DNA from: Escherichia phage MET-P1-301
Reading direction: 5' to 3' (one strand)
Sequence record: PV700625
DNA length: 64,000 nucleotides
A program made the translations under genes and the position numbers. Shown here piece after piece: positions 47,801-49,280 of the stretch. The notes beneath the pieces were generated by a model. The model saw only the letters and a program-made list of their open reading frames with translations. It searched no databases and was not told the DNA's origin. Numbering within the stretch: the first letter of the stretch is position 1; every line of letters begins with the position of its first letter.

Positions 47801-47879
47801 TGGTACTCCATATCGGATTCGAACCGATACATAACACAGATTTTAAGTCTGGCCTCTCTGCCAATTGGAGTAATGGAGC
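47801..47879 (-). tRNA. tRNA with anticodon TAA (Leu-type anticodon, short variable arm)
   Basis: Acceptor and T-arm (ATCGG-TTCGAAT-CCGAT) clear; anticodon loop CTTAAAA; variable region only about 7 nt. Confidence 0.5.
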
Positions 47880-47881
47880 AT

Positions 47882-47956
47882 TGGCGGGGATGTTGGAATT
47901 GAACCAACTTCTTCGATTTCAAAGACCGAGGTTTTAACCTTGTAAACTAATCCCCT
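47882..47956 (-). tRNA. tRNA-Gln (anticodon TTG)
   Basis: D-stem GTTT/AAAC, anticodon stem TCGGT/ATCGA, loop CTTTGAA, T-arm GTTGG/CCAAC. Confidence 0.7.
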
Positions 47957-47964
47957 TTAAATCT

Positions 47965-48522
47965 TTACTTTCTCAGTGGATGAATAAAGAATGCCAACAT
48001 AATTCTTTCCCTTGAGAATGCTCTTTCTTCTGGGACAACACTTTTTAGTTTCCATCCAATATAAATTCTCCAGTAAAATTGTTTACCAAAGATTTTAATT
48101 GATGGGATAAAAGCGAATAATCCCCAAGCATTACTGTTCCACATTAGGAGATAACCTGTCTGATTATCTTCAGGGTCAGAACTTACGTTGATATTACCTT
48201 TCCACTTAGTAACATCTTTTACATCTCTCCCTAATACATGGTAAGAGAAGTTATAAGCTTTGTTTCTCCAGAGCCATCCGACTCTTTGCATGTAGACACC
48301 TAGTTTACCAATCCATCTAATATTAGTCCATCTTTTAACGTGACCTTCATCACCATCAATTGGGTTGTCATAAGTTTCCATCCATCTGAACCCGAAAGGT
48401 AGATGTCCTTTCTTCTCACTGTAGAATGGAACTACGAAAGGTGCTAAGATAACTGCTAAGATTGCTGCAAATGGCTCTAACAAAGCTAAGAAAATCCATG
48501 AAGCATACTTCAAATATCTCAT
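47965..48522 (-). CDS. hypothetical membrane protein inside tRNA cluster
   Basis: 185 aa; N-terminal hydrophobic stretch WIFLALLEPFAAILAVILAPFVVPF. Confidence 0.5.
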   Translation of the reverse strand: MRYLKYASWIFLALLEPFAAILAVILAPFVVPFYSEKKGHLPFGFRWMETYDNPIDGDEGHVKRWTNIRWIGKLGVYMQRVGWLWRNKAYNFSYHVLGRDVKDVTKWKGNINVSSDPEDNQTGYLLMWNSNAWGLFAFIPSIKIFGKQFYWRIYIGWKLKSVVPEERAFSRERIMLAFFIHPLRK

Positions 48523-48541
48523 CTAAATAGCCTCTTTAAAT

Positions 48542-48617
48542 TGGCGCAGGATAAGGGATTCGAACCCCTATTAACAGCTTCGTAGACTGTTGCTCTATCC
48601 ATTTGAACTAATCCTGC
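48542..48617 (-). tRNA. tRNA-Arg (anticodon ACG)
   Basis: Acceptor GCAGGAT/ATCCTGC, anticodon stem ACAGT/GCTGT, loop CTACGAA. Confidence 0.8.
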
Positions 48618-48622
48618 AAAAT

Positions 48623-48700
48623 TGGTGTTCCAAGACGGATTCGAACCGTCACTAGTACAAGGTTTGAGCTTGCATCCTCTACCAATTGGGATACTGGAAC
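48623..48700 (-). tRNA. tRNA with anticodon CAA (Leu-type anticodon, short variable arm)
   Basis: T-arm GACGG-TTCGAAT-CCGTC, anticodon stem GCAAG/CTTGT, loop CTCAAAC; variable region about 6 nt. Confidence 0.5.
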
Positions 48701-48701
48701 A

Positions 48702-48776
48702 TGGTACTCACTAAAGGACTTGAACCTTTTTCTTCATCTTGTAAGGGTGATGTTTTACCATATAAACTAAGCGAGT
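48702..48776 (-). tRNA. tRNA-Val (anticodon TAC)
   Basis: D-stem GTTT/AAAC, anticodon loop CTTACAA, T-arm AAAGG-TTCAAGT-CCTTT. Confidence 0.75.
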
Positions 48777-48782
48777 GTGAAA

Positions 48783-48869
48783 AGAGGTCTGAAGTTGTGC
48801 CGCTAACTCAACTCCGTGGGATTTGTTACGGTCTTCAGTTGACTCAAAGCGGTCTTTCACTTGACCTCT
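48783..48869 (-). ncRNA. structured tRNA-sized element that does not fit a cloverleaf
   Basis: 87 nt bounded by perfect 7-bp inverted repeat AGAGGTC/GACCTCT with nested internal pairings (CCGCT/AGCGG, TCAACT/AGTTGA); no T-loop in either orientation; strand assignment by context. Confidence 0.3.
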
Positions 48870-48873
48870 AAAT

Positions 48874-48949
48874 TGGTGCTCCCACAAGGATTCGAACCCT
48901 GATAAGTTACTTACAAGGCAACCGTAATAGCCAATTATACGATAGGAGC
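48874..48949 (-). tRNA. tRNA-Thr (anticodon TGT)
   Basis: Anticodon stem GTTGC/GTAAC, loop CTTGTAA, T-arm CAGGG-TTCGAAT-CCTTG. Confidence 0.8.
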
Positions 48950-48956
48950 ATTAATT

Positions 48957-49031
48957 TGGAGCATCCAGAGGGAATCGAACCCTCAACCTCAGTTTGGAAG
49001 ACTGTAATTTTCCCGTTTAAACTATGGATGC
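48957..49031 (-). tRNA. tRNA-Gly (anticodon TCC)
   Basis: Acceptor GCATCCA/TGGATGC, anticodon loop CTTCCAA, T-arm GAGGG-TTCGATT-CCCTC. Confidence 0.8.
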
Positions 49032-49037
49032 ACTAAT

Positions 49038-49113
49038 TGGTGGAGTCACTGAGAATTGAACTCAGTTCCCAAGTTTGCAAAACTCGAATTTTAACCATAT
49101 AAACTATGACCCC
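49038..49113 (-). tRNA. tRNA-Ala (anticodon TGC)
   Basis: Anticodon stem CGAGT/ACTTG, loop TTTGCAA; G3-U70 wobble pair in acceptor stem (Ala identity element). Confidence 0.85.
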
Positions 49114-49119
49114 ATTGTT

Positions 49120-49195
49120 TGGTACAGGTGGAGGGAATTGAACCCATCGTCTTACTGATTAAGAGTCAGCCGCATAACCATTTTGCTACACCTGC
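49120..49195 (-). tRNA. tRNA-Lys (anticodon CTT)
   Basis: Anticodon stem GCTGA/TCAGT, loop CTCTTAA; close paralogue of the TTT tRNA at 50913; T-stem only 3 clean pairs. Confidence 0.6.
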
Positions 49196-49202
49196 ATTAA
49201 TT

Positions 49203-49280
49203 TGGTGGGAGACAAGGGATTCGAACCCTCAAACACCAACTTCTAAGGATGGTAGGTTTACCAATTACCGTCAATCTCCC
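49203..49280 (-). tRNA. tRNA with anticodon TAG (Leu-type anticodon, short variable arm)
   Basis: T-arm GAGGG-TTCGAAT-CCCTT, anticodon stem CCATC/GTTGG (one mismatch), loop CTTAGAA; variable region 5 nt. Confidence 0.5.

Follow-up and report, generated by a model that had tools for sequence, protein, structure and literature searches.

Three genes in the tRNA cluster of Escherichia phage MET-P1-301, bearing the leucine anticodons UAA, CAA and UAG and lacking the long variable arm, very probably encode functional phage leucine tRNAs which have the outline of class I, keep the body that is read by LeuRS and are charged by the LeuRS of the host. Most likely they are ordinary leucine acceptors supplying the codons TTA, TTG and CTA. 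The genes are located in a window of 64,000 nucleotides (record PV700625), by which the whole stretch of DNA analysed is meant. For this window alone the finding carries little weight, and nothing suggests recoding. The wider pattern, with approximately one third of the tRNA-Leu in one sample of viral contigs being compact (i.e., short-armed) and solitary compact genes in many Actinobacteria, corrects a textbook generalisation.

Phage identity and tRNA gene cluster

The source phage is a Felixounavirus, a Felix O1-like phage of E. coli/Salmonella. Overall, 26 clustered tRNA genes, located on one strand throughout, were identified in the window by ARAGORN (Table 1). The region 46500–52200 is 95–98 % identical (megablast) to Escherichia phages KEP3, ULIM8, pinkbiff and others, the records of which carry the entry 'tRNA-Leu (x3)', and hundreds of GenBank records contain identical genes labelled tRNA-Leu. 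In Felix O1-like phages, the three genes form the standard tRNA-Leu set and have already been annotated as such. A prophage origin of the Leu genes in the host was dropped as an explanation, because a megablast of the Leu region against 5,426 E. coli genomes was without a match. The minus-strand location of the three Leu genes was absent from the original prediction. Its description of the two tRNA-Ser and the tRNA-Tyr of the cluster as long-armed agrees with the variable arms of 15–21 nt detected in these genes, which serve as internal comparators.

Table 1 Features of the tRNA cluster in the analysed window
Feature	Coordinates	Strand	Length	Evidence	Remarks
tRNA cluster of 26 genes	46607..52147	-		ARAGORN	encloses all three Leu genes; Felixounavirus tRNA module
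tRNA-Ser(GCU)	46687..46779	-	93 nt	ARAGORN	long variable arm; internal comparator
tRNA-Leu(UAA)	47801..47879	-	79 nt	ARAGORN; Rfam RF00005, 47.5 bits	encoded CCA included
tRNA-Leu(CAA)	48623..48700	-	78 nt	ARAGORN; Rfam RF00005, 46.1 bits	encoded CCA included
tRNA-Leu(UAG)	49203..49280	-	78 nt	ARAGORN; Rfam RF00005, 38.9 bits	encoded CCA included
tRNA-Ser(UGA)	49536..49625	-	90 nt	ARAGORN	long variable arm; internal comparator
tRNA-Tyr(GUA)	51499..51586	-	88 nt	ARAGORN	long variable arm; internal comparator

Structure of the three tRNA-Leu

Three tRNAs with leucine anticodons, short variable regions and U33 and A37 in their anticodon loops had been predicted from the sequence, and all of these properties were recovered. 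The three scores lie above the gathering score of Rfam RF00005 (29 bits), and ARAGORN and Rfam agree on the anticodons as well as on the absence of a long arm. No variable stem is present between anticodon stem and T stem in any of the three tRNAs. A hidden long arm or a different anticodon, either of which automated folding might have revealed, is ruled out.

tRNA-Leu(UAA) combines a G1.U72 pair and A73 with a 3-bp D stem (10–12/23–25), a C13.A22 mismatch, the D loop AAUUGGCAG, the anticodon loop CUUAAAA and a variable region of 7 nt (GUUAUGU), the last nucleotide of which is U48. The 3-bp D stem with C13.A22 recurs in tRNA-Leu(CAA), which possesses G1-C72, A73, the D loop AAUUGGUAG, the anticodon loop CUCAAAC, with C38 instead of the A38 of E. 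coli leuX, and a variable region of 6 nt (ACUAGU), the last of which is U48. In tRNA-Leu(UAG), A73, a D stem GGU/ACC and a 9-nt D loop (AAUUGGUAA) are accompanied by an irregular D arm, one extra nucleotide in the 8–9 linker, a U30.U40 mismatch within the anticodon stem, the anticodon loop CUUAGAA, with A37 in place of the G37 of E. coli leuW, and a variable region of 5 nt (UGUUU), again with U48 in the last position. Common to all three are the T loop UUCGAAU and a discriminator A preceding the encoded CCA, and the 3:70 pairs of the UAA, CAA and UAG tRNAs are U-A, U-A and G-C, respectively. Compared with class I tRNAs, the variable loop is short (5–7 nt versus 4–5 nt in class I), but the D stem comprises 3 bp and not 4. 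The three tRNAs are class I in outline and class II Leu in their D arm; the hallmark of class II, a long variable arm, is absent from all of them.

Conservation and covariation

Among matching phage records, tRNA-Leu(UAA) is at least 99 % identical in 215 of 263 and tRNA-Leu(CAA) at least 95 % identical in 248 of 301. Relative to Shigella phage Sf14, 78 of 79 nucleotides are identical in its tRNA-Leu(TAA) and 76 of 78 in its tRNA-Leu(CAA). The Sf14 UAG gene is a different allele from the tRNA-Leu(UAG) of the window, which is 85 % identical to the 77-nt tRNA-Leu(UAG) of T5-like phages.

A search pattern combining U33 and A35 with a D loop of Leu type and a short span to the T loop detected exactly the three Leu sites in the window and none in 100 shuffles; it matched the compact Leu genes of eight reference phages and none of the E. 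coli Leu loci. The compact core, found also in the window genes, measures about 73 nt and is characterized by a 3-bp D stem, the D loop AAUUGGNANA, U33, A35, a variable loop of 4–7 nt, U48 and A73. Across an alignment of 65 diverse compact Leu tRNAs, U8, A14, A15, G18, G19, A20a, A22 and U48 are invariant; of these, U8, the partner geometry of A22 and U48 were not required by the search pattern. A73 is present in 164 of 170 compact Leu tRNAs of the pattern-selected sample (among the matches listed) and in 21 of 22 of an independent sample. Within the 65 aligned tRNAs, 97.6 % of the cells are paired and double changes occur at all 20 pairs; the covariation score is 1.04, whereas shuffles give 0.25 and slid controls do not exceed 0.19. 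In the UAG tRNA of Felix O1, the anticodon stem is wholly different yet fully compensated. Chance cloverleaves are ruled out by the shuffle counts, the conservation across phage records and the covariation, in line with the original argument against random misfolding.

Leucine identity, charging and codon use

Identity of E. coli tRNA-Leu resides in A73, A15-U48, G18G19, A20a and the tertiary pairs between D and T loops (Giege and Eriani 2023, PMC9976931). In all three tRNAs of the window, A73, A14, A15:U48, G18G19, A20a and a 3-bp D stem with Leu-type D loop (A14 A15 U16 U17 G18 G19 Y20 A20a R21) are found, and the nucleotides for the G18:U55, G19:C56 and U54:A58 contacts are likewise present, suggesting that D/T-loop tertiary pairing takes place. 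A73 alone is not specific for Leu, since eleven other tRNAs of the cluster also have it. With the published E. coli LeuRS identity set present and only the long arm missing, the reading as atypical type I Leu tRNAs, one of two offered in the original prediction, is favoured.

E. coli LeuRS reportedly does not use the long arm as a recognition element, E. coli tRNA-Leu variants without it are reported to be still active, and established identity rules have the anticodon ignored only by LeuRS, SerRS and AlaRS (PMC9976931). Since neither the anticodon nor the long arm matters to E. coli LeuRS, the enzyme should charge the three phage tRNAs with leucine. An arginine of the LeuRS C-terminal domain (Arg921 in M. 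tuberculosis, Arg811 in E. coli) was proposed to contact the long arm and to matter for aminoacylation (PMC3561953); charging of the arm-less tRNAs may, therefore, be less efficient.

According to the proposed scheme, the long variable arm would have been reduced to a loop of 5–7 nt, and the body retained for LeuRS comprises A73, U8-A14, A15:U48 as Levitt pair, G18G19 in the Leu-specific position of the AAUUGGNANA D loop, A20a, the 3-bp D stem and, for the three D/T-loop contacts, a canonical T loop. Once charged with leucine by host LeuRS, the UAA tRNA would read UUA/UUG, the CAA tRNA UUG, and the UAG tRNA CUA and, by wobble, other CUN codons. In 40 ORFs of the window, Leu is encoded by TTA (25 %), TTG (16 %), CTA (12 %) and CTG (17 %), and the G+C content of the phage is 39 %. 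The codons served by the three tRNAs are used far more by the phage than by the host.

In the published tRNAscan-SE isotype scoring of Sf14, Leu is the top isotype of the UAA tRNA (60.2, next Lys with 54.2) and of the CAA tRNA (49.1, next Lys with 36.1); these scores are transferable to the UAA and CAA tRNAs of the window only, and the Leu margin of the UAA homologue is small (6 bits). Transfer of the scores published for the Sf14 UAG gene (Leu 67.4, Ile2 65.7) to the UAG tRNA of the window is invalid, because the two are different alleles. In our own covariance model, built from 45 long-arm Leu tRNAs with masked anticodon, the window's Leu tRNAs rank 2, 3 and 5 of 26 (53.5, 52.4 and 51.0 bits). 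This model is not counted as support, since tRNA-Glu (54.5 bits) and tRNA-Cys (51.1 bits) score as high as Leu.

Distribution of compact tRNA-Leu

Compact tRNA-Leu were detected in T5, Felix O1 and phages of Aeromonas, Erwinia, Cronobacter, Xanthomonas, Streptomyces and Lactobacillus; of the stretches fetched from IMG/VR, at least 110 contain them. Bacterial tRNA arrays carry them as well, and in Actinobacteria they occur as solitary genes, with G+C-rich compact Leu(UAA) genes of this solitary kind in many of these bacteria. When viral contigs were sampled via tRNA-Met, 22 of 72 tRNA-Leu proved to be compact, as compared to none of 37 tRNA-Ser and 1 of 20 tRNA-Tyr (among the matches listed), and the tRNA-Ser and tRNA-Tyr in clusters with compact Leu have kept their long arms. 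For M. tuberculosis, long arms are reported on only some Leu tRNAs (PMC7450476). The comparison with tRNA sets of related phages, proposed along with the original prediction, also bears on the rarity which the latter implied: the three tRNAs are unusual relative to the host, whose tRNA-Leu measure 85–87 nt (E. coli K-12), but not among phages, where the compact form is common.

The compact form is very probably a heritable tRNA-Leu variant that is widespread among phages, tRNA arrays and Actinobacteria. Its presence in Leu and virtual absence from Ser and Tyr would be due to LeuRS alone tolerating an arm-less tRNA. Leu, with a dispensable arm, and Ser and Tyr, with the arm kept, together constitute a natural experiment that is consistent with decades of synthetase biochemistry.

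Among the actinobacterial solitary genes, there are groups of 11–16 loci with common flanking ORFs; this analysis is noisy, as high-G+C DNA yields many spurious ORFs. Upon inspection by eye, some of the flanking ORFs appeared NADH dehydrogenase-, Ppx/GppA- or amino-acid permease-like.

Some relatives are labelled 'tRNA-Pseudo' in tRNAscan-SE-based annotation, namely the TAG gene of Yersinia phiR2-01 and the CAA gene of Aeromonas Akh-2. Covariance-model annotators sometimes call such genes pseudogenes, and real Leu tRNAs can therefore be missing from inventories of phage tRNAs and from analyses of codon supply. No explicit account of short-arm tRNA-Leu in phages was found in a full-text literature search, and they go unmentioned in papers on Sf14 tRNAs, T5 tRNA evasion, bacterial Schlafens and non-canonical tRNAs.

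Alternative explanations

The tRNA-Pseudo label carried by some relatives in GenBank would fit arm-deletion pseudogenes or tRNA-shaped RNAs with a non-translational role, e.g., as decoys or processing signals, and so would the UAG tRNA with the lowest Rfam score of the three, its irregular D arm and its stem mismatch. Decay of this kind is, however, highly improbable given near-identity over hundreds of Felixounavirus genomes, an encoded CCA end, intact T loops, invariant Leu identity nucleotides, anticodons fitting codons that the phage uses heavily, and compensatory changes at all 20 pairs in 65 relatives together with the fully compensated anticodon-stem swap of Felix O1. The other reading offered in the original prediction, charging with another amino acid despite the Leu anticodons, would imply partial reassignment of UUR or CUA. 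Suspicion of such recoding arose from the missing class II arm and may be nourished by the narrow isotype margins of the UAA homologue and the Sf14 UAG allele, yet it is scarcely credible. Apart from LeuRS, SerRS and AlaRS, every synthetase would need another anticodon; the 3:70 pair is G.U in none of the three tRNAs; SerRS requires a long arm, and its determinant G73 is A73 here. Moreover, every Leu determinant is present, and solitary bacterial genes show this architecture too. Because the codons concerned are also read by the Leu tRNAs of the host within one and the same cell, reassignment would yield ambiguous proteins. Nothing speaks for charging with an amino acid other than leucine.

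A further possibility accepts the tRNAs as Leu acceptors and attributes loss of the arm to positive selection for escape from effectors that recognise class II arms. Compact tRNA-Leu, invisible for instance to DUF1814 nucleotidyltransferase toxins of the MenT/AbiEii type from the host or a rival, would keep Leu codons readable once host tRNA-Leu is disabled, and Leu would be the sole class II isotype able to lose its arm, because LeuRS alone dispenses with it. If true, the compact tRNA-Leu of phages and arrays would rescue leucine decoding upon inactivation of host tRNA-Leu. Several observations are compatible with such counter-defence: compact Leu is enriched on mobile DNA (tRNA arrays and the 22 of 72 Leu in the viral sample, among the matches listed), all tRNA-Leu loci fetched from E. 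coli K-12 are of the long type, and the 5,426 E. coli genomes gave no megablast match to the Leu region of the window. DUF1814 nucleotidyltransferase toxins favour long-arm tRNAs, and in M. tuberculosis MenT3 modifies one Leu tRNA besides the Ser tRNAs (PMC7450476); phage tRNAs evade anticodon nucleases via loop changes (PMC10264068), and the CAA and UAG anticodon loops of the window differ from those of the host tRNAs. Counter-defence is nevertheless unlikely, as no known effector inactivates E. coli tRNA-Leu via the arm, MenT3 chiefly targets Ser tRNAs and phage Ser tRNAs keep their arms, S. agalactiae AbiE was without protection against 32 coliphages, and the tRNA-Leu of T4 stays at 87 nt. 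The actinobacterial solitary compact Leu tRNAs need no phage-defence explanation, and relaxed constraint combined with deletion bias accounts for the pattern equally well.

Comparison with known systems

As probable functional leucine tRNAs, the three phage tRNAs can be compared with their counterparts in the host, leuZ (UAA), leuX (CAA) and leuW (UAG) of E. coli K-12, which have the same three anticodons. Shared features are A73, U8, A14, A15, G18G19, U48 and a canonical T loop, together with the D loop AAU(U/C)GGUAGA, a 3-bp D stem and a purine/pyrimidine.A22 mismatch. In contrast, the E. coli tRNAs possess a variable arm of 12–15 nt instead of 5–7 nt and have U32 where the phage tRNAs have C32, as well as G13 where two of the latter have C13.

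A parallel among phages of E. coli is provided by the tRNA-Leu(UAA) and tRNA-Leu(UAG) of T5 and other Demerecviridae, which are likewise compact (77 nt, 5-nt variable loop) and have A73 and an encoded CCA. The UAG tRNAs of T5 and of the window even share the U30.U40 mismatch and the loop CUUAGAA. T5 belongs, however, to a different phage family, its UAA tRNA contains G13 in place of C13, its UAG tRNA is devoid of the extra nucleotide before the D stem, and no CAA species is present in the T5 stretch examined.

Arm-less E. coli tRNA-Leu has also been engineered (Larkin et al. 2002; Asahara et al. 1998), and these Leu bodies without arm are, according to the account in PMC9976931, aminoacylation and editing substrates provided that A73 and the D/T-loop contacts are intact. 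They are laboratory constructs, some of them described there as lacking the anticodon arm too, whereas those of the phage occur naturally, are complete and have been maintained in evolution. Natural absence of the long arm is likewise known from animal mitochondrial tRNA-Leu(UUR), with identity resting on A73 and A14 (PMC9976931). Those tRNAs are organellar, have degenerate D/T loops and are served by a dedicated mitochondrial LeuRS, in contrast to the canonical loops and bacterial LeuRS of the phage system. The phage tRNAs, encoded in a coliphage genome with canonical G18G19 and UUCGAAU, do not belong to this group; the likeness ends at the missing arm, and there is no evidence for common descent.

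Beyond phages, the compact tRNA-Leu of Actinobacteria and tRNA arrays have the same 73-nt core with a 3-bp D stem, an 11-nt D loop, a 5-nt variable loop ending in U, and A73. Of 83 solitary bacterial genes (among the matches listed), 82 show the C13.A22 D-arm subtype that the UAA and CAA tRNAs of the window have. These actinobacterial and array genes are G+C-rich and not near-identical to those of the window; the solitary ones lie among housekeeping-like ORFs and others within large chromosomal tRNA arrays.

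Structure of the three tRNA-Leu

Three compact tRNA-Leu genes, i.e. genes with a short variable loop in place of the long variable arm, reside on the minus strand of the window, a location that the original prediction had left unstated. Its coordinates, anticodons (TAA, CAA and TAG) and clear acceptor and T-arms were borne out by ARAGORN cloverleaves and by matches to the Rfam tRNA model, all scoring above the gathering score. All cloverleaves comprise an acceptor stem of 7 bp, a T stem of 5 bp, the T loop UUCGAAU and an anticodon loop of 7 nt, in which the predicted U33 and A37 are present. 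The variable regions (nucleotides between anticodon stem and T stem) are within the proposed 5–7 nt, and the long arms ascribed to the two tRNA-Ser and the tRNA-Tyr of the cluster measure 15–21 nt. A pattern built on the D loop typical of Leu, on U33 and A35 and on close spacing to the T loop matched exactly the three Leu sites in the window and nothing in 100 shuffles.

The acceptor stem of tRNA-Leu(UAA) is closed by a G1.U72 wobble, whereas all four E. coli K-12 Leu sequences compared have G1-C72. The wobble also occurs in 26 out of 65 diverse compact phage Leu tRNAs and in 29 out of 101 long-arm viral Leu tRNAs.

Compact tRNA-Leu genes and other tRNA-related features of the window
Feature	Position	Strand	Detection and score	Variable region (nt)
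tRNA-Leu(taa)	47801-47879	minus	ARAGORN; Rfam tRNA, 47.5 bits	7
tRNA-Leu(caa)	48623-48700	minus	ARAGORN; Rfam tRNA, 46.1 bits	6
tRNA-Leu(tag)	49203-49280	minus	ARAGORN; Rfam tRNA, 38.9 bits	5
tRNA-Glu(UUC)	51986-52063	minus	anticodon-masked Leu model, 54.5 bits	
tRNA-Cys(GCA)	46607-46682	minus	anticodon-masked Leu model, 51.1 bits	
Weak full-length match	49644-49719	minus	Leu-body covariance model, 13.3 bits, E about 0.01	

Genomic context

Overall, 26 minus-strand tRNA genes were identified by ARAGORN (46607-52147). By megablast against GenBank phages, the region 46500-52200 shares 95–98 % identity at 87–100 % query coverage with Felixounavirus phages of Escherichia, Salmonella and Shigella; under the match, the annotation of records including KEP3, vB_EcoM_ULIM8 and pinkbiff reads "tRNA-Leu (x3)". 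No megablast match to the Leu region of the window was detected in 5,426 complete E. coli genomes. The phage tRNA-Leu(UAA) is flanked by tRNA-Gln(CUG) and tRNA-Gln(UUG) (47720-47956, minus strand), and in the E. coli operon metT-leuW-glnUW-metU-glnVX a Leu tRNA is likewise joined to Gln tRNAs; this adjacency may be fortuitous or a vestige of how the cluster arose. The weak match listed in the table lies between tRNA-Ser(UGA) and tRNA-Arg(UCU), was not called as tRNA by ARAGORN or Rfam, and may represent a decayed tRNA gene.

Conservation, covariation and codon use

Of the 263 phage records matching the UAA gene, 215 carry it at 99 % identity or more; for the CAA gene, 248 of 301 reach 95 % or more, and the UAG gene is more variable than both. 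Across 65 aligned compact Leu tRNAs of diverse origin (reference phages and IMG/VR contigs), standard pairs make up 97.6 % of cells, changes on both sides occur at each of the 20 pairs, and the covariation score is 1.04, compared to 0.25 after shuffling and at most 0.19 with partners slid. Leu codons in 40 long ORFs of the window are TTA (25 %), TTG (16 %), CTT (26 %), CTC (5 %), CTA (12 %) and CTG (17 %), a usage that fits the three anticodons; in E. coli, CTG makes up about half of the Leu codons. On the basis of conservation, covariation and codon use, the three genes are probably functional.

Predicted leucine identity

Compared to the tRNA-Leu of E. coli K-12 (leuZ, UAA; leuW, UAG; leuX, CAA; leuQPV, CAG; 85–87 nt with a variable stem-loop), the phage tRNAs have kept the Leu body but lost the long arm. 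Retained are U8, a 3-bp D stem, the unpaired 13.22 position, the canonical T loop, a D loop reading A14 A15 U16 U17 G18 G19 Y20 A20a R21, a U at the last variable position allowing an A15:U48 pair, and A73 followed by an encoded CCA. In E. coli tRNA-Leu, A73 is crucial while anticodon and long variable arm are not, SELEX revealed A15-U48, G18G19 and A20a to be essential, and D/T-loop tertiary pairs matter; variants devoid of the long arm, or even of the anticodon arm, are active if A73 and tertiary contacts are intact (Giege and Eriani, PMC9976931). Since every identity element so reported for E. coli tRNA-Leu is found in all three phage tRNAs, leucine is the predicted amino acid.

In Shigella phage Sf14, tRNAscan-SE isotype models place Leu (60.2) ahead of Lys (54.2) as the best and second-best isotypes of the UAA tRNA, and likewise Leu (49.1) ahead of Lys (36.1) for the CAA tRNA (PMC12482277). 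These genes match those of the window at 78/79 and 76/78 positions, respectively; the UAG gene of Sf14 represents another allele, and its isotype score is not transferable. With an anticodon-masked covariance model built from 45 long-arm Leu tRNAs, the Leu tRNAs ranked 2, 3 and 5 among the window's 26 tRNAs, with tRNA-Glu and tRNA-Cys scoring just as high, so that the model does not set the Leu tRNAs apart. The tRNA-Glu(UUC) has a Leu-like geometry (3-bp D stem, 11-nt D loop).

D-arm subtypes and alleles of tRNA-Leu(UAG)

Among the matches listed, a C13.A22 subtype accounts for 80/210 viral compact Leu genes, 82/83 solitary bacterial genes and 1/101 viral long-arm Leu genes, while a G13/A13 subtype is common to compact and long-arm Leu tRNAs. 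The window's genes are split between the two (UAA and CAA are C13.A22; UAG is related to the T5 type, a G13/A13 member). The compact form may thus have arisen more than once.

The tRNA-Leu(UAG) is the least regular of the three: an additional nucleotide separates position 9 from the D stem, which is shifted to GGU/ACC, the anticodon stem contains a U30.U40 mismatch, and the anticodon loop reads CUUAGAA. Its A37 differs from the G37 (m1G37 site) of E. coli leuW; among viral Leu tRNAs with NAG anticodons, A37 is frequent (65/101 compact, 26/52 long), and it is rare in sampled solitary bacterial genes (1/10). The U30.U40 mismatch looks conserved rather than accidental, because it is common to the tRNA-Leu(UAG) of the window, T5 (L001:8997-9073) and a Cronobacter phage (L007:8001-8077). 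At least three alleles occupy this slot in Ounavirinae: that of the window, 85 % identical to the tRNA-Leu(UAG) of T5-like phages; that of Felix O1 (L009:4000-4077), with the same backbone and a wholly different yet perfectly complementary anticodon stem; and an unrelated compact one in Sf14 (L372:16492-16568). Comparison of the alleles suggests that the gene has been replaced as a cassette, possibly by exchange across phage families.

Distribution of compact tRNA-Leu

Compact tRNA-Leu, with a core of about 73 nt, is common and not peculiar to this phage. The proposed comparison with other phages' tRNA sets yielded compact genes in T5 (UAA, UAG), Felix O1, Aeromonas phage Akh-2, Erwinia phage SunLIRen and Lactobacillus phage LpeD (three each), Cronobacter phage EspYZU14 (two), Streptomyces phage Gremlin23 (one) and Xanthomonas phage X1 (one, plus two long). 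The tRNA-Leu of T4, on the other hand, measures 87 nt. In IMG/VR, the diagnostic pattern retrieved at least 120 stretches, with at least 170 compact Leu genes in at least 110 loci; among the matches listed, 164 of 170 carry A73, and Ser and Tyr genes of the same loci are nearly all long. In a sample not selected on Leu (119 viral loci picked via a tRNA-Met pattern, among the matches listed), 22 of 72 tRNA-Leu (31 %), 0 of 37 tRNA-Ser and 1 of 20 tRNA-Tyr are compact.

In bacterial genomes, the same pattern detected at least 83 loci in which a compact Leu gene, usually UAA and rich in G+C, stands alone. Among the matches listed, these belong mainly to Mycobacterium, Nocardia, Gordonia, Rhodococcus, Arthrobacter, Rothia, Bifidobacterium and other Actinobacteria, in many of which this solitary tRNA-Leu(UAA) is highly conserved (73-nt core, C13.A22). 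Elsewhere, in cyanobacteria, myxobacteria and various MAGs, the matches lie in tRNA arrays comprising as many as 28 genes, with Leu compact and Ser and Tyr long. This agrees with the remark that only "several" leucine tRNAs of M. tuberculosis have long variable arms (Cai et al. 2020, PMC7450476), and conflicts with a recent review placing the long arm on tRNA-Leu everywhere but in animal mitochondria (PMC9976931).

Interpretation and comparison with known systems

Very probably, the three genes encode ordinary leucine-accepting tRNAs, the compact architecture of which would be tolerated by LeuRS and which would supply codons heavily used by the phage. Of the two readings offered originally, that of atypical type-I Leu tRNAs thus stands by virtue of the LeuRS identity elements. 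The other, charging with a different amino acid, is highly improbable: of the other synthetases that do not read the anticodon, AlaRS requires G3:U70 and SerRS a long arm and G73 (PMC9976931), the 3:70 pairs of the UAA, CAA and UAG species are U-A, U-A and G-C, and both enzymes are ruled out. Pseudogenes or a non-translational role are nearly as hard to reconcile with the conservation across phage records, the covariation and the matching codon use.

The arm may be missing owing to relaxed constraint, which is sufficient to account for its absence and explains the loss in Leu only, not in Ser or Tyr. An adaptive loss, by which the tRNAs would escape defence-associated effectors, draws on the reported preference of certain defence-associated nucleotidyltransferase toxins (MenT3, AbiEii) for long-arm class II tRNAs; it is unlikely, as nothing links such effectors to E. 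coli tRNA-Leu and the phage Ser tRNAs have retained their arms. The arm loss nevertheless provides a lead toward a possible defensive benefit, and annotation tools may mislabel compact tRNA-Leu genes as pseudogenes.

A full-text literature search found no paper explicitly discussing compact tRNA-Leu in phages; given also the review's long-arm statement, these tRNAs are under-described, not unknown. The tolerance of LeuRS towards arm-less substrates is long established (PMC9976931). Hundreds of GenBank records, those of Felix O1 and T5-like phages among them, already list identical or near-identical copies of the window's genes under the name tRNA-Leu.
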